Below, in pieces: positions 39,830 through 49,913 of a DNA stretch of 64,000 nt. Source of the stretch: Alphaproteobacteria bacterium (lineage in GTDB: Bacteria > Pseudomonadota > Alphaproteobacteria > Sphingomonadales > Kordiimonadaceae). Where the stretch lies: NCBI GenBank assembly GCA_013372975.1, contig JABXIS010000044.1, positions 40,959-104,958 on the forward strand, read 5' to 3'. The notes under the pieces are model-generated. The model made no database searches and was not told where the DNA came from. It saw only the letters and a program-made list of their open reading frames with translations. Both the position numbers and the translations under genes were made by a program. Positions within the stretch are counted from its first letter, which is position 1. Every line of letters begins with the position of its first letter.

Positions 39830-41890
39830 ATGGCAGACGCCAGGCAATCCGGTAAATCCGTTCTCGCTGCAGCAGGTGCAATCTTTGCGGTTGCGGCGAT
39901 TGGCTTTTTTCTGATCTTTCGCTTTGCTCAATCCGAGGCCGAACAGAACCTTTTACGCTGGCAGGACAGACTCAATCTTGTTGCGGACAGCCGCAATCTT
40001 GATGTTTCCTCCTGGCTGAACAAACACATTGGCAGCGTTGAGGAATTGGCTGGCGACGCAACCATTCAACTCTATGCAAGCCAAGCAGCCAACACCGACA
40101 GTGAATTTGCCGAAGGACAAAGAGGGTATGTCTTTTCCCTCCTCACTGCAGCGGCGGAACGTGAAGGATTTCATGAACAGCGGGCGATTGATGAGGTTGC
40201 CGCGAATATAAAACGCCCACAAAGGGCTGGGTTGGCGCTATTGCGGGGGGACGGTCGTCCACTGGTTGCAACAGCTGGCATGCCCATACTGCGCCCGGGC
40301 GAATGGCCTGCTGATGCGCGTGGTTCCTTCGTTGCCTTGGGCCCTCGCCTCGAAGACAAGACACCTCTTGTTCTGTTTGGAGCACGCGTAACAGGCGACG
40401 CCATGAACGCCCCAACAGAAGAAGACATCTGGGTGGTTGGCGCCCGTCCACTGAATGAAGATTTTCTGACCACCTTGGAACAGCCGGGCGCGGCCAGTAA
40501 AACCGCTGAAACATATCTCGTGGTACCACAGGAAGGCGATGTCATCATTCCCCTGACCCCTTTGAAAAAAGGAGGGCGCATCGGTGACCCCCGTGTCGAC
40601 GAAGCTGCAGCGTTTGCAGCACGTGAACCAGGCGGGTTTGGTCGTCATCAAAATTATGCCGACGTAGAAGTTCTGGTTACTGGTAGAGAGCTGACAGCAC
40701 CTGTCCCATGGATACTTGTCCGCACAATCAATGCAGATGAAGCCATGGCTGAAATAAATGAACGCCGGAACAGCTTGATCATTACGCTCTCGCTTGCAGC
40801 ACTATTTGTTATAGCGGCACTTGTCATGGTTTGGCGGCATGGTGTGTCGCAGCGATTGGCTGCATCCTATGCAGAACAAGCGTCTTTATCCCAGAAGAAT
40901 GAAGCCCTCAGCCGGTTCCTGCAATCTGTCAGTGATAGCCAGCCTACAGCCATTGCCGCACTCGATGCGGATATGAAGGTTCATTTCGCCAACAAACGGC
41001 TGGGTGATGTAGCGGGCCTTCCGGTAGAAGACTTACGCGCTCGCCGCCTGGATACAGCGTTCCCTAGCGAAGTCGCAGATACTCTTCGGGTTGCAGCTCA
41101 GGAAGCAAGTAGCGGTAAGGAGAGCAGCAGCCACCTCAAACTCACGCAGGGTGGTGAAGAGCGCACTTTCCAGACCCAGATGCTACCTCTCCAGGCAGAA
41201 GGGGACAGCACGGCTTCCACTCTTCTGGTGATGCAAGACATTTCCAGCCTTGTGGCTGCGAAGGAGCAGTCTGAAACCCTGTTCAAACAGTTGGTCAGCA
41301 CGCTCACACAGATCATCGATGCCCGCGATCCATGGAGCAAAGAACATTCCAGCCGTGTGGCCGATGTGGCCTATACAATCGCTGAAGAAATGGGCTGGGA
41401 TAAAGACGGGATTGAAAGCGTCCGGATCGCCGGTCAACTTGTGAATTTGGGCAAAATTTTTGTCCCATCAAGCATTTTGACTAAACAAACACCTCTTACA
41501 GACGAAGAATTGGCCCTTGTCAGGGACAGCATGCAAAAAGGCGCCACCCTCGTTGCAGGGCTGGACTTCAAAGGGCCAGTAGCGGCAATCCTGGGCCAGA
41601 TGAGGGAACACTGGGATGGCAGTGGTGAACCGGCTGGTCTTACAGACGAAAAAATCGAGCCCGGCGCGCGCATTCTAAGCGTGGCGAATGCCTTTGTGGG
41701 CATGGTCTCGGCGCGAGCTCACCGTTCTGGCCTCGGCTTTGACAAAGCAATGGACATTTTGAACGGCGATGCTGGCAAACGTTATGAGCGCCGTACTGTT
41801 GCAGCCCTTCAGAACATTCTGGAAAATAAAGGCGGACGGGATCGCTGGCAGCCCTATACAACCTTGCCCGAGCAGGATGAGAATACCTGA
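39830..41890 (+). CDS. Inner-membrane Cache-PAS-HD-GYP protein, catalytically degenerate
   Basis: Two TMs flank a periplasmic domain, then PAS, then HD-GYP fold with HD>VN, HHE>MRE, GYP>GEP, AD>AN; RAHR retained. Confidence 0.85.
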   Translation: MADARQSGKSVLAAAGAIFAVAAIGFFLIFRFAQSEAEQNLLRWQDRLNLVADSRNLDVSSWLNKHIGSVEELAGDATIQLYASQAANTDSEFAEGQRGYVFSLLTAAAEREGFHEQRAIDEVAANIKRPQRAGLALLRGDGRPLVATAGMPILRPGEWPADARGSFVALGPRLEDKTPLVLFGARVTGDAMNAPTEEDIWVVGARPLNEDFLTTLEQPGAASKTAETYLVVPQEGDVIIPLTPLKKGGRIGDPRVDEAAAFAAREPGGFGRHQNYADVEVLVTGRELTAPVPWILVRTINADEAMAEINERRNSLIITLSLAALFVIAALVMVWRHGVSQRLAASYAEQASLSQKNEALSRFLQSVSDSQPTAIAALDADMKVHFANKRLGDVAGLPVEDLRARRLDTAFPSEVADTLRVAAQEASSGKESSSHLKLTQGGEERTFQTQMLPLQAEGDSTASTLLVMQDISSLVAAKEQSETLFKQLVSTLTQIIDARDPWSKEHSSRVADVAYTIAEEMGWDKDGIESVRIAGQLVNLGKIFVPSSILTKQTPLTDEELALVRDSMQKGATLVAGLDFKGPVAAILGQMREHWDGSGEPAGLTDEKIEPGARILSVANAFVGMVSARAHRSGLGFDKAMDILNGDAGKRYERRTVAALQNILENKGGRDRWQPYTTLPEQDENT

Positions 41891-44241: not shown

Positions 44242-44709
44242 TTGAACGCTGTTTTCGCACGATGGTTGCATCTTACACAAATAACACGTATAGGTTTAAG
44301 TCAATGCTACCCAAAAAGACGAGGTTTGGCTGTGTTGCAGGAGCACTTTCAATCTATCACGGTATATTTTGATCTCCAGTCTGACCGAAGATCCGCAATA
44401 AGAGAAGCATATCAGAAATACGGCCTGCGGGTTCGCGTCTTGCCTCAATATCTTGCCTTCAGTGTCGGCATTCTCGCTGAACCCTTCTTTACCCTTGTTG
44501 GCGCAAACCATGCGCCTGCAGAGGCATCCACTATTGTGTCTCGGTTGTTGTTCGCGATGGTTATTGGCCTGTTGCTACTGCCAAACGTCTATAAGGCCAT
44601 CTTCAACCCGGCTAAGGCCGTGGGCCTTCAGATGCTGATACTGTGCCTGTTGGGACTGGGATGGCAGTCGCTATTCAAAGTGGTTGGCACTGCCGCTATT
44701 GGTTCTTAA
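44242..44709 (+). CDS. Hypothetical membrane protein
   Basis: About 3 hydrophobic segments; likely start GTG 44332. Confidence 0.5.
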   Translation: MNAVFARWLHLTQITRIGLSQCYPKRRGLAVLQEHFQSITVYFDLQSDRRSAIREAYQKYGLRVRVLPQYLAFSVGILAEPFFTLVGANHAPAEASTIVSRLLFAMVIGLLLLPNVYKAIFNPAKAVGLQMLILCLLGLGWQSLFKVVGTAAIGS

Positions 44710-44754: not shown

Positions 44755-44785
44755 AAAAAAACCCGCTCGAGGAGCGGGTTTTTTT
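44755..44785. terminator. Bidirectional terminator; probable original tRNA-Arg terminator
   Basis: aaaaaaacccgctc-gag-gagcgggttttttt, a 14-bp stem adjoining the displaced tRNA 3' half. Confidence 0.88.
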
Positions 44786-44836
44786 GAGTGGCGCACCGGG
44801 GAGGATTCGAACCCCCGGCCCCCAGATTCGTAGTCT
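44782..44836 (-). repeat. att direct repeat (displaced tRNA-Arg 3' half)
   Basis: 55 bp identical to 49830-49884. Confidence 0.97.
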
Positions 44837-44940
44837 TGGTTTCAGGCTACACATGCACACCCACCGCACTCCAAAAGCCCTTAATTCCTGTATAGATACG
44901 CTCATCAATATTTTTCACCGCCCATTGAAACCCAGTGAAG

Positions 44941-44979
44941 TGGTAGCTAAATGGTAGCTAGAGAGATTTCTAGCAACCA
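44941..44979. repeat. Integrase arm-type sites, left cluster
   Basis: tggtagctaaa (44941-51), tggtagctaga (44952-62) and inverted tctagcaacca (44969-79). Confidence 0.75.
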
Positions 44980-44996
44980 CATCAAAGGGCGCAGCC

Positions 44997-46370
44997 ATGG
45001 CCGCAAAGAAAGCAAAAATATCCAAGCGCGTGGTAGACACCTTGAAGCCCGGCGAAACAGTCTGGGATACCGAAATTGCAGGCTTTGGCATTCGCTGCCA
45101 AACACGCGACAAAGTTTACATCCTCAAAAAGCGAATAAATGGCCGTCAGCGGTGGCTAACGATTGGCAAACATGGAGAGCCATTTACAGCCGACTTGGCC
45201 CGTGACGAGGCCCTAATCCTGCTTGGAGACATCAAAAAGGGCAACGACCCCGCCTTGGAGCGCGAAAAACGCAAGAACCAGCCAACCGTTGCCAACCTAA
45301 TGCAGCGATATTTGGAAGAACACGCATTCGAACATAAAAAGGCTTCCTCCGCTAAAGAGGATGAGGCGAACATCAGAAACCATATCGTGCCCCATTTGGG
45401 GAACAGGCAAGTGATTGACCTCACAGTCTCTGACATTGACGCCCTGAAACGCGCCATCAAGGCCGGGGGCGGCATAAGTCAAATAGCAAAAGACGAACCC
45501 GCCCCGCGCCTTAAGGGAGGTCCCGGCGCGGCGAATAGATGCCTCGCCCTGTTATCCAAGGCCATGAACCTAGCCATCAAATGGGGGTGGCGGGCAGACA
45601 ATCCGGTAAGCCATGTTTCGAAATACAAAGAAAACAAAATCGAGCGGTTTTTGTCTGAAACAGAAATCGCTGCAATCGCCGGGGCACTACGCAAGGCAGA
45701 ACTTGATGGCGCGAGCCCCTATGCAATTGCCGCTATCCGGCTCCTTATGTTCACAGGCGCAAGAAGGGGCGAAATTCTTACCCTCAAGTGGTCTGAAGTG
45801 CATTTCGATAAAGACCTGATTTTGCTTGGTGACTCCAAAACAGGGGCAAAGCCAATTTACCTGAACGCCCCAGCAAAAGATGTTTTGGCCGGATTACCAA
45901 AGCAAAAAGATAATCCTTATGTGATTTGTGGAACAAACCAGGGTAAGCACCTCACCAACCTTAAGCGCCTTTGGCAGAATGTGCGAAACCAAGCAACACT
46001 GGATATTTGGGCAAATACCGTTCCGGCACTGAATGAGTTTTTACAGTCCCAAAAGGAAACCCCACCGGCGCAGGCTATATCTGCCACCGCAAGATATGCC
46101 AAGAAGGAAGGCTTGGAATTACCCTCAGGCGTGCTGGACGTACGTATCCACGATTTGCGGCATACATTTGCCAGCGTTGGAGCAATGGGCGGCTTGTCTC
46201 TCCATATGATTGGAAAGCTACTTGGGCACAAACAGGCCGGAACCACTCAGAGATATGCGCATTTGGCTGACAACCCAATACTGGATGCAAGCAATAAAAT
46301 TAGTGCGAAACTAGCGGATTGCATGAATCTAGATACATTAACTGCCAAAACCGAAATACAGAGGGGTTAA
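44997..46370 (+). CDS. Tyrosine recombinase/integrase with N-terminal arm-binding domain
   Basis: TGARRGE (R), SKTG (K), HDLRH, LGH and RYAHL (Y) catalytic residues intact. Confidence 0.97.
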   Translation: MAAKKAKISKRVVDTLKPGETVWDTEIAGFGIRCQTRDKVYILKKRINGRQRWLTIGKHGEPFTADLARDEALILLGDIKKGNDPALEREKRKNQPTVANLMQRYLEEHAFEHKKASSAKEDEANIRNHIVPHLGNRQVIDLTVSDIDALKRAIKAGGGISQIAKDEPAPRLKGGPGAANRCLALLSKAMNLAIKWGWRADNPVSHVSKYKENKIERFLSETEIAAIAGALRKAELDGASPYAIAAIRLLMFTGARRGEILTLKWSEVHFDKDLILLGDSKTGAKPIYLNAPAKDVLAGLPKQKDNPYVICGTNQGKHLTNLKRLWQNVRNQATLDIWANTVPALNEFLQSQKETPPAQAISATARYAKKEGLELPSGVLDVRIHDLRHTFASVGAMGGLSLHMIGKLLGHKQAGTTQRYAHLADNPILDASNKISAKLADCMNLDTLTAKTEIQRG

Positions 46371-46373
46371 CTC

Positions 46374-47234
46374 ATGCGAGAGCTTTTTCAGAGCAAGCCA
46401 ATAAACCCCCGATATATAAATCTATTCATTCCCACTGGATGGAGGTATCTATTTGAGGTTCCGACTGAATGGGCTCAGGAAGTCTGCGATTTCTCTGAAG
46501 ATGACCAAAAGAATATACGCCTCCTCGAACAAAAGAAGCGTTGCGAGCATACTCTCCAAAAAGTACCCGCTACCATAATTAGCGGCAATGATTGGCAGAT
46601 AAGAGCCGCGAGGAACCGAGAAGCCAGAGAAAGCTTAGAAAATTCATTGCACAGAGCGACCGCAGAAATCGCCGAAAGAAAAATCGAAATTGAGCAATCC
46701 CAAAAGCGGCTAGGGGCATTCCAGAAACAAGTACTGTTTTTTCAGAATTCCATTCGACAGCAATATGCAGAAGGCATGTATAAAGCCCAGCTCACTACAC
46801 CCAGCGGGCTTATTCTAGACATAGACACCACGTTTTTTCGTAGAAACGACATTCACGAGATGTGGCGCAAAGGCGTTGGGTTCGCGATGGCTCGCGACAT
46901 TACTGGTTACGGCCAAAGCAAGGCAGATGGGCTTGTTCTCGCCAACATAGATGACCTTGAAAAGCTAAAAGCCATCTTGCTTGAAACGCCAAGGGGCGGA
47001 GGACACAGCCAAAAAGCTCATCTTCGTAGAGAATTAGCGAACTGGATGAAGATAGAGCTTCCCAAGCTTCCAAAAAGCCTCTCCTTCGACGCCATTTTTG
47101 AACTGGCGAAGGAATGCTTCAAAGACCACCCAGGCAACATCAGCAAATCCTTGTTTCGGGAAGTCTGGAAAAAAGAAGCACCTCCCGAGCGAAAAGAGCC
47201 TGGTGCGAAACCCAAGAAATCCCCCGAAAAATAA
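46374..47234 (+). CDS. Hypothetical protein of the element (coiled coil, basic C-terminus)
   Basis: 286-aa ORF starting 3 nt after the integrase stop. Confidence 0.75.
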   Translation: MRELFQSKPINPRYINLFIPTGWRYLFEVPTEWAQEVCDFSEDDQKNIRLLEQKKRCEHTLQKVPATIISGNDWQIRAARNREARESLENSLHRATAEIAERKIEIEQSQKRLGAFQKQVLFFQNSIRQQYAEGMYKAQLTTPSGLILDIDTTFFRRNDIHEMWRKGVGFAMARDITGYGQSKADGLVLANIDDLEKLKAILLETPRGGGHSQKAHLRRELANWMKIELPKLPKSLSFDAIFELAKECFKDHPGNISKSLFREVWKKEAPPERKEPGAKPKKSPEK

Positions 47235-47351
47235 TCATCTGGTTTTTTAGAAAAGCATCAACATTCCTCGTCTTTTTTTCCAACGCCTCATACGGGCACA
47301 ATTCCTTTCACACAGGCTTCTTCGCCTCCATCAAATTGAAAGGAACCCTAC

Positions 47352-47555
47352 ATGAGCAAGCTGCTCTCAGAACTACAGGCCTCAGAGTATTTAGGAAGCA
47401 TTCCACCCAAAACACTGGCCCGATGGCGACTGGAAGGCGGCCACATTCCATATGTGAAGTGTGGGAAAGCGGTACGCTATCGCCAGTGCGACCTGGACGC
47501 CTACATCGAAGCGAACGTGCGCACCTCCACTTCCGAAAAGGGGGCCGCGCAATGA
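47352..47555 (+). CDS. Excisionase/AlpA-like HTH protein
   Basis: LSELQASEYLGSIPPKTLARWRLEGGHIPYVKCGKAVRYRQCDLDAYI. Confidence 0.9.
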   Translation: MSKLLSELQASEYLGSIPPKTLARWRLEGGHIPYVKCGKAVRYRQCDLDAYIEANVRTSTSEKGAAQ

Positions 47556-47779
47556 AAAGGTTTCAGAAATTAAAAACCCCAAGTGTCGTTGCAGCGACAC
47601 AAGGGGCAAATCAGAAAACCTCAGCAGATTTTCAAAGACATGATAAGCGGGTTTTCTCGCACCGCCAAGCCCACAATTTCTCCCTGCGGTGGATTACGCG
47701 AAAATGCGGCATTCCTTCGCACCTTGCACCCACCATCGCCTTTCTAGCAGGCATCAAGGGAGGGCAGGCCAATGACTAA
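47552..47779 (+). CDS. Small hypothetical protein of the element
   Basis: ATGA overlap with the HTH gene; overlaps the next start; 75 aa. Confidence 0.6.
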   Translation: MKRFQKLKTPSVVAATQGANQKTSADFQRHDKRVFSHRQAHNFSLRWITRKCGIPSHLAPTIAFLAGIKGGQAND

Positions 47780-48065
47780 GTATAAAATCACCGTCATAAT
47801 CGTTCGAGAAAACAGCGCCGCTACCAAGATTTTCTGTGGCCGCGTTGCTTGGGCCCTTAACGAGCTCATTCGCGTAGGTGAAAGGGGGGTTACACCCATC
47901 ACCCACCCTGCGCCAAGGTGGTCAGCCTATATCCACATTCTTCGCGGCGAAGGGCTGATAATTGAAACGATTCATGAAAAGCATGGCGGTCGCTTTCCCG
48001 GCACACATGGCCGCTACATATTGCGAAGCATTGTTCATCTCGTTCACGCCAACGACAATGATTGA
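47772..48065 (+). CDS. Small winged-helix-like protein
   Basis: AWALNELIRVGERGVT...PRWSAYIHILR.EGLIIET...GRY.L. Confidence 0.75.
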   Translation: MTKYKITVIIVRENSAATKIFCGRVAWALNELIRVGERGVTPITHPAPRWSAYIHILRGEGLIIETIHEKHGGRFPGTHGRYILRSIVHLVHANDND

Positions 48066-48637
48066 GCATTTCCATGGCATTCGGAAAAGCAAACAACACA
48101 GGCCGTTCCAGCAATAAGCATAACGGCAACAGGGGGGACGCGCTGCGCCCCCCGAAAGGCCAGCAATGGATTTGGCATACACAAGAAATGCTAGAATCCC
48201 CAGCATGGCAGGCACTATCGATTTATGCGAGGCAGTTTCTTGGCGCTCTTGAAATTGAGCACATGAATCATGCTGGCCAAGCAAACGGGCGGCTAATGGC
48301 AACCTATGACCAGTTGGTAGCTTCCGGCATTACAAGAAACAAAATCAGGCAAGCGATAGAGGAAACAGAATATCTTGGCTTTATCGAAGTCACCCGTCCC
48401 GGTGGGCGATGGGCCAACTCAAATCAGCCCAGCATGTATAGGCTCACCTATTTTGGTACCATTGAGGGCCAGCATGGCTTTCCTCCAACCAACGAATGGA
48501 AAAAAACCACAGTTAAGAAAATTGCTGCTTGGAAAGAAATACTGAAGCATAAAAGACGGCGTTCCAGAGGCTCAAAAAACATGTTTGGCAGTTCCACAAT
48601 TGAAACTACGATAGTACCAATGGAGGCACTACCATAA
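48062..48637 (+). CDS. HTH protein, putative replication initiator
   Basis: MLESPAWQALS...NGRL...IRQAIEE..YLGFIEVTR.GG...PSMYRLT; imperfect repeat pair at its 3' end. Confidence 0.6.
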   Translation: MSISMAFGKANNTGRSSNKHNGNRGDALRPPKGQQWIWHTQEMLESPAWQALSIYARQFLGALEIEHMNHAGQANGRLMATYDQLVASGITRNKIRQAIEETEYLGFIEVTRPGGRWANSNQPSMYRLTYFGTIEGQHGFPPTNEWKKTTVKKIAAWKEILKHKRRRSRGSKNMFGSSTIETTIVPMEALP

Positions 48638-48721
48638 TGCACTTTCTGGCACTCCGCATTTAAGTGGGGCCCCAGGAAACGGCGGGTTTGTTGCTTAAGG
48701 CCATAGTACCAGCGGGGGCAC
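48611..48721 (+). repeat. Imperfect 19-nt direct repeat pair (iteron-like)
   Basis: atagtaccaatggaggcac (48611-29) vs atagtaccagcgggggcac (48703-21), 16/19 identical. Confidence 0.55.
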
Positions 48722-48850
48722 CGCTTATATATTTTGGTTCTATTCGCGTTTAGACTAGGCTGCCCGAAATATTATGTTGCCCGCCACCGCAATAGAGTTT
48801 TTTCACACCTTTACGCGCACGCGCGCGCGAGGCATGTTGAAAGGCTGCCG

Positions 48851-49252
48851 ATGCTAAGAAATCTAATATTGTTGTTTGCTTTTGCGTCGCTTGTTGCTTG
48901 TGGTGAAGCTCATCCCAATGAGGTTGAGGTCGAATATGTTTACGATGGCGACACAATTACAGTTGTACGCCTCGGAGACCAGGAACATGTCCGAATCAGA
49001 CTGATGGGCTACGACACAGCGGAAATAAAGTCGTCCAAATGCGCTCGTGAAAAGGCACTAGCCCTCGAACAAAAAGATGCGCTGGCTTCTCTTATCGGAG
49101 ACTCCATCATCCTCCAAGTTGAGGGAAAGGATAGATATGGCCGGACATTGGCCTGGGGTTTCACAGCCGTGGGTCAGTCTGTCAGCGAGTATATGATTTC
49201 AGAGCACAACGCCCGTCCTTACGATGGCGGTAAACGTCGCTCTTGGTGCTAG
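48851..49252 (+). CDS. Thermonuclease (SNase-family) lipoprotein
   Basis: Lipobox LVAC; YDGDTI, RLMGYDTAE and DRYGRTL motifs. Confidence 0.88.
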   Translation: MLRNLILLFAFASLVACGEAHPNEVEVEYVYDGDTITVVRLGDQEHVRIRLMGYDTAEIKSSKCAREKALALEQKDALASLIGDSIILQVEGKDRYGRTLAWGFTAVGQSVSEYMISEHNARPYDGGKRRSWC

Positions 49253-49325
49253 CACCCATTCCGCCAAACATCTTCTTAGCCCACGGATTCGTGTTATGGT
49301 CCTAGAGACTGGTAAGGATTCTCGC

Positions 49326-49769
49326 ATGAGACACAACAAGCTCGCCACAACAGGGATTAGCTTTCTTCTTCTTGCGCTGCCTCTAAACGCAGATGACGAG
49401 CCCCCGATAGACAAAGATGACGTTTACACTTTGGCGCAACAGTTTGCTAGCTGTGCTGGCTTATATGACGCCTTGGCACAATCCGTTCAAGACCAAATAG
49501 GTAATTCGGCTATGGTGGAACAATTCAAGGGCATGGCGAATGGTGCGCAGATTACTGCCCAATATGTCGCTCAACAGGCCATTGACACTGAGAAGGCAAA
49601 AGAATTTGCCTCGAATGGCCGAAAAACGTTTTCTGCATCTTGGGGTTTACGCGTTGACCCAGAACCTGACAAGGCCGCACAACAAGAAATGAATATTTGC
49701 TTAGAGCTGAATCCTTTCCAAGCCGATGTAGTCGAAAGGGCGAGAAAAAAGGCTTACGGATTTAATTGA
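49326..49769 (+). CDS. Secreted hypothetical protein
   Basis: Signal peptide MRHNKLATTGISFLLLALPLNA; two Cys. Confidence 0.75.
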   Translation: MRHNKLATTGISFLLLALPLNADDEPPIDKDDVYTLAQQFASCAGLYDALAQSVQDQIGNSAMVEQFKGMANGAQITAQYVAQQAIDTEKAKEFASNGRKTFSASWGLRVDPEPDKAAQQEMNICLELNPFQADVVERARKKAYGFN

Positions 49770-49791
49770 TGGTTGCTAATTGGTAGCTAGA
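49770..49791. repeat. Integrase arm-type sites, right cluster
   Basis: tggttgctaat plus tggtagctaga; 20/22 identical to 44941-44962. Confidence 0.75.
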
Positions 49792-49794
49792 AAC

Positions 49795-49828
49795 AAAAAA
49801 GGGCTTCAGCAAAATTTGCTAAGCCCTT
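49795..49828 (-). terminator. Element-supplied terminator for the restored tRNA
   Basis: aagggctt-c-agcaa...ttgct-aagccctt stem followed by a T-tract on the minus strand. Confidence 0.75.
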
Positions 49829-49829
49829 G

Positions 49830-49884
49830 TTTTGAGTGGCGCACCGGGGAGGATTCGAACCCCCGGCCCCCAGATTCGTAGTCT
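49830..49884 (-). repeat. att direct repeat within the intact tRNA
   Basis: 55 bp identical to 44782-44836. Confidence 0.97.
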
Positions 49885-49913
49885 GGTGCTCTATCCAGCT
49901 GAGCTACCGGTGC
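49837..49913 (-). tRNA. tRNA-Arg(ACG)
   Basis: 77-nt cloverleaf GCACCGGTAGCTCAGCTGGATAGAGCACCAGACT-ACG-AATCTGG...GGTTCGAATCC...CGCCA with encoded CCA. Confidence 0.98.

Follow-up and report, generated by a model that had tools for sequence, protein, structure and literature searches.

A 5-kb integrative element in the tRNA-Arg(ACG) gene of an alphaproteobacterium and its apparently phage-derived relatives

The stretch of DNA analysed here (the window; 64,000 nt, positions 40,959 to 104,958 of contig JABXIS010000044.1 in assembly GCA_013372975.1, Kordiimonadaceae, Alphaproteobacteria) carries a 5,048-bp integrative element at a tRNA-Arg(ACG) gene. All its candidate genes lie on the plus strand and all open reading frames (ORFs) are intact. 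The features of the element and of its two attachment (att) sites are listed below by window position.

44762–44785, no strand: host-derived bidirectional terminator hairpin, once 3' of tRNA-Arg and now beside the displaced tRNA fragment (read from the sequence).
44779–44836, no strand: distal att copy, the displaced 3' part of the host tRNA-Arg(ACG) (48 nt of tRNA plus 7–10 nt).
44941–44979, no strand: arm-type repeats on the integrase side, predicted to bind integrase, 18–56 nt upstream of the int start.
44997–46370, plus: P4-type tyrosine integrase (int), 457 aa, with Arm-DNA-bind_3, SAM-like and catalytic domains.
46374–47234, plus: ORF2, 286 aa, a near-orphan in a variable integrase-adjacent slot, starting 3 nt past int.
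47352–47555, plus: AlpA/excisionase-type helix-turn-helix (HTH) protein, 67 aa (HTH_17).
47583–47747, plus: ORF4, 54 aa, an unsupported and doubtful gene, possibly non-coding spacer.
47772–48065, plus: HTH_91 winged-helix protein (ORF5), 97 aa, with a good Shine-Dalgarno sequence, GGGAGGG.
48074–48637, plus: ORF6, 187 aa (191 aa from TTG 48062), predicted winged-helix DNA-binding protein and family hallmark.
48611–48737, plus: conserved cis-site, two copies of a 19-nt repeat and a 14-nt box, at the 3' end of ORF6 and just past it.
48851–49252, plus: cargo 1, staphylococcal nuclease (SNase)-family nuclease, 133 aa, with a lipoprotein signal (LVAC).
49326–49769, plus: cargo 2, 147 aa, with an N-terminal signal peptide.
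49770–49789, plus: arm-type repeats on the tRNA side, TGGTTGCTA and TGGTAGCTA, direct, with an 11-nt period.
49800–49833, no strand: element-borne hairpin with A and T runs on either side (read from the sequence).
49827–49884, no strand: proximal att copy in the intact tRNA; the element supplies the 3' 48 nt of the functional tRNA.
49837–49913, minus: intact tRNA-Arg(ACG) (ARAGORN; Rfam RF00005).

The ends of the element are marked by a direct repeat of 58 nt with one mismatch (44779–44836 versus 49827–49884, spacing 5,048), within which a blastn self-match delimits a 100%-identical att core of 55 nt (44782–44836 and 49830–49884). The proximal copy lies in the sole tRNA that ARAGORN found in the window, tRNA-Arg(ACG) on the minus strand at 49837–49913 (RF00005, 66.5 bits), and the repeat takes in positions 30–77 of this tRNA, from the 5' strand of the anticodon stem to the CCA end, together with 7–10 nt past it. 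The Rfam scan of the window gave nothing beyond the tRNA above threshold, its sub-threshold leader-like matches corresponding to the terminator hairpin. The two att copies are preceded by differing hairpins, each between A and T runs. The one at 44762–44785, for which a terminator scan placed the stem at 44765–44779 with a T run after it, is found before the tRNA in related genomes as well (positions 516–545 of the joined-flank query described below were matched), so the hairpin at 49800–49833 was supplied by the element. The latter is predicted to serve as terminator in both directions, for the cargo operon on the plus strand and for the rebuilt tRNA on the minus strand.

An empty site was sought by joining the two flanks and matching them against 40 relatives. 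In four genomes of the same genus (G023, G010, G001 and G014) the match to the joined flanks continues from the host terminator across the tRNA and on into the right flank without a break. The order in G023 and G014 is a 71-aa gene, a 91-aa gene, a GNAT gene, tRNA-Arg(ACG), a lipoprotein gene and a 296-aa gene, with no 5-kb insert. The 5-kb segment is a genuine insertion in tRNA-Arg(ACG), a site that is unoccupied in these congeners. An attP that duplicates the tRNA from anticodon stem to 3' end and continues into the element's own terminator recombined with tRNA-Arg(ACG); integration replaced the 3' half of the tRNA and displaced the host copy by 5 kb. The repeat of a 3' tRNA end, the catalytic integrase and the empty site, which together define a tRNA-targeting tyrosine-integrase element, were all found.

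The element is single-copy in its own 3.6-Mb genome, in which the integrase is its sole protein with a paralogue. A second P4-type integrase, 32% identical, is encoded on contig C57 of this genome (G000; C57:17637-18767), about 11 kb from a tRNA-like match (C57:6146-6206), and may mark another island. Between the GNAT gene and the host terminator with its displaced tRNA fragment lies an ORF for a putative membrane protein of 155 aa (window 44242–44709), which G023 and G014 lack; in those two genomes about 107 nt separate the end of the GNAT gene from tRNA-Arg. The ORF may be DNA specific to this strain or the scar of an earlier event at this tRNA hot spot.

Protein domains were searched with Pfam, PHROGs and NCBIfam, and additionally with PADLOC. 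The integrase matched PF00589 (4.6e-18), PF13356 (5.7e-10), PF14659 (1.2e-7) and phrog_1 (2.9e-59), and its translation keeps the catalytic R/HxxR/H/Y signature (ARRGE, HDLRHT, LLGH, QRYAH). Upstream of int, TGGTAGCTA occurs as two direct copies (44941 and 44952) and TGGTTGCTA as one inverted copy (44971–44979). Exact TGGTAGCTA has three copies in the 64-kb window, every one at the element ends; with up to one mismatch the 9-mer occupies three sites just 5' of int (one inverted) and two just inside the tRNA-side end. In a circular form these repeats would flank the core as P and P' arm sites.

ORF2 belongs to no family in the four libraries. Among 5.8 billion clusters it matched itself alone, and among 1.8 billion representatives it had a single distant match (E 1.7e-4). 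With the N-terminus of the gene that fills this slot in one relative, the marine element L051 (see below), it shares 26% identity, and the same-slot proteins of other relatives are unrelated. The AlpA-type protein matched PF12728 HTH_17 (6.6e-8), the excisionase/regulator family phrog_66 (8.8e-6) and, under its cut-off, TIGR01764 (4.3e-4), while the HTH_91 protein matched PF22324 (2e-33) and phrog_25676 (4.6e-22). ORF4 had neither a family in Pfam, PHROGs or NCBIfam nor a counterpart in relatives. For ORF6 the gene caller chose ATG 48074 as start, which leaves an 8-nt gap to the HTH_91 gene; from the TTG start the two genes overlap by 4 nt. The gap between int and ORF2 is 3 nt. Nothing among the element ORFs matched a primase, helicase, terminase, capsid, portal, relaxase or coupling protein in Pfam, PHROGs and NCBIfam.

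The original prediction, made from the letters and ORF translations of the window, had proposed a bounded, minimalist integrative element with no packaging or transfer genes, and the repeat, empty-site and domain scans agree with this. Its two identical 55-bp att copies ending in the anticodon arm, 5,048 bp apart, were recovered by the repeat and tRNA scans, and the ORF positions bear out its placing of the integrase at the end away from the intact tRNA and of all ORFs on one strand. The library matches likewise back its naming of an integrase, an HTH protein, a winged-helix protein and a nuclease (int, HTH_17/AlpA-like, HTH_91 and SNase), as well as its failure to recognise a capsid, terminase, primase or relaxase gene. 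Of the eight ORFs that it counted seven are solid, ORF4 being doubtful since neither library nor relative supports it. The translational coupling that it ascribed to several ORFs holds for int/ORF2 and HTH_91/ORF6, the others not being tightly coupled.

ORF6, the hallmark of the family described below, matched no family in Pfam, PHROGs or NCBIfam. Its 52 homologues are all unnamed, none has a Pfam domain, and the best are 53–54% identical. In the AlphaFold2 model (pLDDT 82) a winged-helix core lies between a disordered, basic N-terminus and a long C-terminal helix. Among PDB structures the best named fold matches were initiators of RepA_N/multidrug-resistance plasmids (4pql, 5kbj and 4pt7; E ~0.02–0.08), and among BFVD models they were phage proteins annotated as 'replicon initiation' or 'replisome organiser' (E ~1e-3 to 1e-2); a profile of ORF6 against PDB sequences gave nothing meaningful. 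An HUH/rolling-circle Rep was considered and rejected, as the conserved EHxNH motif sits in a helix of the winged-helix fold, with no HUH strand. ORF6 is a candidate origin-binding initiator or regulator. The description of this protein as 'rep-like' in the original prediction had no sequence basis, no family having been matched, and it stands as a reasoned possibility that draws on the weak fold matches and on iteron-like sites next to the gene.

These sites form the conserved cis-site at the 3' end of ORF6. Copy 1 of a 19-nt repeat (48611–48629) lies in the last ORF6 codons and copy 2 (48703–48721) 92 bp on, and right after copy 2 stands the 14-nt box CTTATATATTTTGG (48724–48737), which has 2 mismatches to the family box. 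Further 9-mers resembling ATAGTACCA occur at 48454 and, inverted, at 48735. The layout recurs through the family as an element-specific, often dyad-symmetric sequence of ~20 nt within the 3' end of ORF6, a downstream copy mostly 89–92 bp away, and then the box CTTCTATATCTTGG. The box (up to 2 mismatches, within 200 nt past the ORF6 stop) was present at 25 of 54 non-redundant ORF6 loci and in 8 of 5361 control windows, and it was not found in prophages that have HTH_91 and lack ORF6. Some relatives, for example L032 and the element of Sinorhizobium meliloti, have four tandem copies at 23–36-nt spacing. The upstream copy of the DNA repeat also encodes the conserved, disordered C-terminal peptide of ORF6 (consensus TTVVRLxELP; window 48605–48637), and conservation of this peptide may be a by-product of constraint at the DNA level, i.e. 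dual coding. Both marks of the proposed ORF6-module family, an upstream partner gene with ORF6 and the box with its repeats, are thus present in the element.

Two functions were considered for the cis-site. There is about an even chance that it is a minimal origin, with iterons and an AT-rich box bound by a protein resembling an initiator or replisome organiser. An origin in and after the initiator gene is the arrangement of RepA_N plasmids, lambda O and the rep gene of Staphylococcus aureus pathogenicity islands (SaPI), and this reading is supported by the ORF6 fold matches and by the helicase-primase genes beside ORF6 in L032 and L098. Several observations count against it. No Foldseek match of ORF6 is significant (every one has E > 1e-3), and the matches to replication proteins are intermixed with MarR/ArsR regulators. 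The conserved box includes CTATAT, which we take to be the alphaproteobacterial sigma-70 -10 consensus, and the supposed origin may therefore be a plain promoter. That the site is a regulator-dependent promoter for the downstream operon, with CTATAT as -10 and a regulator site replacing the -35 region, was given a probability distinctly below even. The operon in question consists of the cargo genes in this element and, in a 16.4-kb element of the same genus (G005, see below), of a 252-aa gene, the small terminase subunit (TerS) gene and the tape-measure gene. A scan for the sigma-70 consensus found promoter-like sites no more frequently than in shuffled sequence; such a scan misses the box, as the site has no -35 element.

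Past the cis-site are the two cargo genes. Cargo 1 retains intact nuclease motifs in its translation (DGDT / R..DT.E / YGR) and matched the endonuclease family phrog_452 (2.3e-18), PF00565 (1e-4) and, weakly, the PADLOC model SNc+LTD (1.5e-4). This weak SNase-domain match was all that PADLOC gave for the element. Cargo 2 belongs to no known family in Pfam, PHROGs, NCBIfam or PADLOC.

A scan of a genome collection with an alignment of 16 ORF6 sequences gave 15 loci, and a metagenome scan gave 45. ORF6 was present, as a single copy, in 8 of 400 other alphaproteobacterial species sampled as whole genomes. Within the genus, 3 of 32 genomes (own genome included) have it, also in single copy, and these are exactly the three that have HTH_91, the two genes being adjacent in every case. 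The distribution is sporadic. Elements were counted as delimited where a tRNA and a repeat of its 3' part were found. ORF6-bearing elements of 5.6–16.4 kb sit in other tRNA genes, among them the following.

L051, 6,875 bp, in tRNA-Asn: int, ORF2-like gene, AlpA, HTH_91, ORF6 and three cargo genes, including one for a Sel1 protein.
L027, 9,275 bp, in tRNA-Arg(TCT): int (38% identical), HTH_91 and ORF6.
L032, 10,708 bp, in tRNA-Glu: DEAD-type helicase and Toprim primase genes directly 5' of ORF6.
L109, 5,582 bp, in tRNA-Ser(GGA): int and ORF6.
L039, 13.6 kb, in tRNA-Ser(CGA): integrase of a different type.

The marine element L051 has the same gene order as the window element, and S. meliloti Ak57 has int, a 280-aa gene, AlpA, HTH_91, ORF6 and DUF6074. 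In L027, L032, L051 and the window the integrase is distal to the intact tRNA, and the repeat extends from the 3' end of the tRNA inward for 48–62 nt. The gene just 5' of ORF6 is of three unrelated types, namely HTH_91, a 98-aa family and DUF6074. The original prediction had called for the same gene order to be looked for in other Alphaproteobacteria; relatives that share the backbone were found in L051, L027 and S. meliloti Ak57, and since such syntenic relatives exist the element is not a one-off remnant. Its suggestion that the family may be undescribed is consistent with the literature searched, which contained no description of HTH_91, DUF6074 or this backbone. In a survey of S. meliloti integration hot spots, sequences of this kind figure only as incomplete prophages or generic islands (PMC11476347). 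From these comparisons the element appears to be the smallest delimited member found here of a phage-derived, 5–16-kb, tRNA-integrating alphaproteobacterial family. Neither circular or concatemeric contigs nor terminal overlaps were found among the 45 metagenome and 15 genome loci.

Some of the relatives are of interest in their own right. Two metagenome contigs from ENA share a 2.9-kb segment at 99.97% identity (L015:6432-9351 and L016:4225-7144) that holds a 252-aa gene, AlpA, a 98-aa gene and ORF6. Identity sets in exactly within the tRNA-Thr(TGT) anticodon stem. In L016 an intact tRNA-Thr adjoins the segment, and in L015 there is only a 3' tRNA fragment, beside tRNA-Leu, tig, clpP, clpX and lon. 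The two contigs show a single element at different chromosomal locations, its first gene following the att site with no integrase gene in between; either an int-less derivative that is mobilised in trans or integration at a secondary site may explain this. In G442, of the same genus as the window, HTH_91 and a seemingly frameshift-split ORF6 follow a sulfate permease gene (L105:10705-11422), with neither integrase nor AlpA; this locus is the remnant of a decayed family member. ORF6/HTH_91 also occur in two records labelled as plasmids, CP090106.1 (S. meliloti Ak57, 'pSymB', 3.7 Mb) and NZ_CP069303.1 (Shinella, 'unnamed1', 4.6 Mb). Because both look, by their size, like mislabelled chromosomes, the genes there are probably in chromosomal islands.

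Several of the relatives connect the backbone with phages. Homologues of the HTH_91 protein (47–65% identical) lie 1–3 kb from the ends of prophage contigs of ~36–39 kb in IMG/VR. In one of these (L085) the order is int, HTH_17, HTH_91, a 197-aa gene, primase, a 355-aa gene, RNase H, a NusG-like gene and, later, the large terminase subunit (TerL) gene; the HTH_91 prophages examined have no ORF6. In the complete genome of G005 a 15-nt repeat bounds an element of 16,383 bp in tRNA-Leu(TAA) (L110:180-16650); its order is int, 313-aa gene, HTH_91, ORF6, 252-aa gene, TerS (phrog_309, 3e-36), an 802-aa tape-measure protein (phrog_1538, 2e-70) and DUF5681. A gene for a capsid, portal or TerL was not found among its ten ORFs tested. 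Two readings fit it, a satellite-like element with TerS or a prophage scarred by deletion. DUF5681 was also seen 3' of ORF6 in a Rickettsiales metagenome-assembled genome (L030) and in G320 (L107). Finally, a 31.5-kb phage-plasmid of Methylobacterium carries a DUF6074 + ORF6 pair along with a tape-measure gene, Toprim/RepA helicase genes and ParA. The HTH_91 prophages, the G005 element and this phage-plasmid together indicate that the backbone is phage-derived.

Among described systems the closest parallel is with the phage-inducible minimalist islands of Vibrionaceae chromosomes (PICMIs), in which int, iolg and alpA are followed by up1, prim and up2, and which are mobilised by a virulent phage (PMC10803314). 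PICMI115 needs the int-adjacent 'iolg/icg' gene for excision, that slot being filled by 13 unrelated families across PICMIs, and the system shows that a virulent phage can package an element of ~6 kb as concatemers even when the element carries no packaging gene (PMC10803314). The window element resembles them in size (~5–6 kb, six to eight genes on one strand), in having no capsid or packaging genes, and in its order, with int, a gene overlapping or contiguous with int, alpA, unknown genes and then cargo at the far end; its int-adjacent slot is likewise variable, with several unrelated proteins across ORF6 elements. The published PICMI model accepts PF00589 and PF12728 and makes a primase (DUF3987 PF13148 / DUF5906 PF19263) mandatory (PMC10803314). 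The window element has the co-localised int and alpA. In contrast to PICMIs, however, it has no primase, carries HTH_91, ORF6 and the conserved box, and occupies tRNA-Arg(ACG) rather than the site downstream of fis, in a host of a different class. Excision induced by a helper phage, rolling-circle replication and concatemer packaging are properties of PICMIs, whereas the present element is known from its sequence.

The virion-encapsidated integrative mobile elements (VEIMEs) are also small and capsid-less, with a tyrosine integrase, AlpA and many genes that lack homologues, and include Alphaproteobacteria among their hosts. Their concatemers are packaged in marine virions, a process that they show to be common among marine bacteria, Alphaproteobacteria included, and some have no known replication genes (PMC9618062). 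VEIMEs are defined by recovery from virus particles, whereas the window element is known from a genome and was compared by description. With phage-inducible chromosomal islands (PICIs) and P4-like satellites (PMC10085698) the element shares a P4-type integrase (Arm-DNA-bind_3), an AlpA-type regulator, a tRNA-type site and small size, and larger relatives hold satellite-typical genes (TerS in G005, helicase-primase in L032). It differs from them in that Pfam, PHROGs and NCBIfam revealed no pri-rep, terS, sid/psu/delta, cpm/ppi or Stl/CI-type repressor gene. Thus neither the pri-rep nor the packaging and capsid genes (terS, ppi/cpm, capsid/portal) of PICIs and capsid-forming PICIs (cf-PICIs) were found, and of the P4 type the integrase and AlpA are shared but the psu, delta, sid, epsilon and alpha genes are absent. 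Lacking a primase and packaging genes, the element does not belong to the PICMI, PICI or P4 groups.

Hitcher-type genomic islands, which phages transduce although no transfer gene is recognisable in them, as with the tmRNA islands that jumbo phages move in Pseudomonas (PMC12595487), resemble the element in having a tyrosine integrase, direct repeats, a small stable-RNA site, cargo and no recognised transfer functions. They are larger, carry defence systems, use tmRNA as their site and have another backbone, and their transfer was seen experimentally (PMC12595487). The ~37-kb HTH_91 prophages such as L085 share an integrase-proximal early arm in which HTH_17 precedes HTH_91, but go on to primase, RNase H, NusG-like and TerL genes and have neither ORF6 nor the box, whereas the window element ends after ORF6 and then has its cargo. 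Nor does it look like a defective prophage, as the interval 44837–49826 holds no structural, lysis or replication remnants and no pseudogenes. As for an integrative mobilizable element (IME), no relaxase or type IV coupling protein (T4CP) was found in the element and no VirB4 in the genome, and the box is a formal candidate for an origin of transfer (oriT). Of the known systems, the element would by analogy work most like a PICMI.

On what is known of its family, the P4-type integrase would bind the arm repeats TGGTAGCTA that lie to either side of the core, and the AlpA-type HTH protein would serve as excisionase/directionality factor or as trigger. ORF2 may fill the same variable int-adjacent slot as the PICMI 'iolg/icg' gene, and the HTH_91 + ORF6 pair may be a DNA-recognition module that acts on the site at and after the 3' end of ORF6. 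If that site is a minimal origin, it would borrow replication enzymes from the host or a helper. Transfer from cell to cell needs something else again, since no primase, helicase, terminase, capsid, relaxase or part of a type IV secretion system (T4SS) is encoded. By analogy with PICMIs and VEIMEs, the vehicle that we tentatively put first, at slightly less than even probability, is a helper phage, perhaps virulent or non-resident; the phage-type backbone, the extra genes of relatives and the PICMI and VEIME precedents all point this way. Dependence on a helper phage ('satellite' status) is plausible by analogy; the element has no packaging signal. A more specific proposal, that the partner gene, ORF6 and the box form a new minimal 'borrowed-replisome' origin or helper-recruitment site through which elements as small as 5 kb and devoid of primase, helicase and terminase are amplified and packaged by alphaproteobacterial phages, is doubtful, with a probability well below even.

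The overall reading, to which we give somewhat better than even probability, is that of a genuine and apparently functional 5,048-bp site-specific integrative element, probably able to enter and leave the chromosome, belonging to a phage-derived alphaproteobacterial family. A number of results tell against it or against its helper-phage part. The GC content does not set the element apart from its flanks. The whole element has no close relative (ORF6 53–54% identical at best, ORF2 a near-orphan), so recent spread is undocumented. Relatives of ORF6 were absent from the INPHARED phages and from IMG/VR, a database which may under-represent elements that lack viral hallmark genes. Searches of the own genome found no gene for an HK97 capsid, Terminase_6N or TerL_ATPase, and none for VirB4, and therefore no resident helper of the types searched. 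Apart from the att repeat, no DNA of 20 nt or more is common to the element and the remaining genome, which leaves no cos/pac mimic of a resident phage.

The likeliest of the alternatives is a decayed temperate prophage of ~37 kb, of which an internal deletion left the int/early arm and a pair of morons from the right end, immobile or only excisable. HTH_17 and HTH_91 do follow each other as in the integrase-proximal early region of such prophages, and secreted and lipoprotein genes beside att are typical prophage morons. Decay is seen in the family (G442 retains HTH_91 and a split ORF6 only), the 16.4-kb G005 element looks deletion-scarred, with the tape-measure gene right after TerS, and near-identical copies of the window element were found nowhere else. 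However, the element contains no pseudogene or fragment of a structural gene, its 55-nt att copies are identical, and the arm sites, the catalytic residues of the integrase and the gene couplings are intact. Five or more independently delimited elements of 5–11 kb keep the same backbone in distant hosts, with ORF6 identity of ~45% and differing, non-phage cargo, which fits a persistent lifestyle better than repeated identical deletions; moreover, the HTH_91 prophages examined lack ORF6 and the box. A prophage remnant is therefore considered fairly unlikely.

The other two alternatives retain a mobile element and change its vehicle, and both were judged very unlikely, to about the same degree. 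In one, an IME is moved by conjugation, the box after the dyad being an oriT and ORF6, with or without HTH_91, a relaxosome accessory protein, while relaxase and T4SS come from a co-resident element. An element-specific, often dyad-symmetric sequence followed by a 14-nt box does resemble an oriT, in which the nick region lies beside an inverted repeat, and many IMEs carry an oriT alone. Yet no relaxase, T4CP or conjugation domain was found in the element or in the relatives examined, the own genome is without VirB4, the extra genes of relatives are of phage type (TerS, tape measure, primase), and all three plasmid records with an ORF6 match were typed as non-mobilisable, one of them being the phage-plasmid. 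In the other, the element is a self-replicating integrative episome with no dedicated helper, in which ORF6 acts as a plasmid-type initiator at the iterons, recruits host DnaB/DnaG, and spread is passive, by vesicles, transformation or generalised transduction. The fold matches to RepA_N-type initiators and phage replisome organisers speak for an episome, as do the binding-site-like repeats in and past ORF6's own gene, a placement known from RepA_N plasmids and lambda O. Some VEIMEs, too, have plasmid-like Rep/Par genes or occur in vesicle fractions (PMC9618062). Against this, the 45 metagenome and 15 genome loci included no free circular contig, the element has no partition or copy-control gene, and all the fold matches are non-significant. 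The original prediction of a helper-dependent minimalist satellite or IME is partly supported, the element being real, minimalist and one of a family with syntenic relatives, with its satellite status unproven. In kind it is placed with the small helper-dependent integrative elements.

Small islands that have only an integrase and no transfer genes are, to our knowledge, common, and how they move is mostly unknown; we know of no alphaproteobacterial phage satellite family that has been defined experimentally. The present element is near a lower size limit: its 5 kb provide for integration and hold two cargo genes, a single cis-site and the genes for one or two DNA-binding proteins. Being so small, and having clear relatives of which some add TerS or a helicase-primase, it offers a tractable system for the minimal requirements of hitchhiking. 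For an uncharacterised protein family (ORF6), a Pfam domain (HTH_91) and a 14-nt DNA box the analysis also proposes roles that can be tested, and the ORF6 module with its box is the most useful new handle. If the 'borrowed-replisome' reading is true, these elements would constitute a new satellite family apart from the P4-like elements, PICIs, cf-PICIs, PICI-like elements (PLEs) and PICMIs, present in ~2% of the alphaproteobacterial species sampled. If the element is only a regulated integrative cassette, it would show how the gene for a secreted nuclease is delivered to a tRNA site under element-encoded control.

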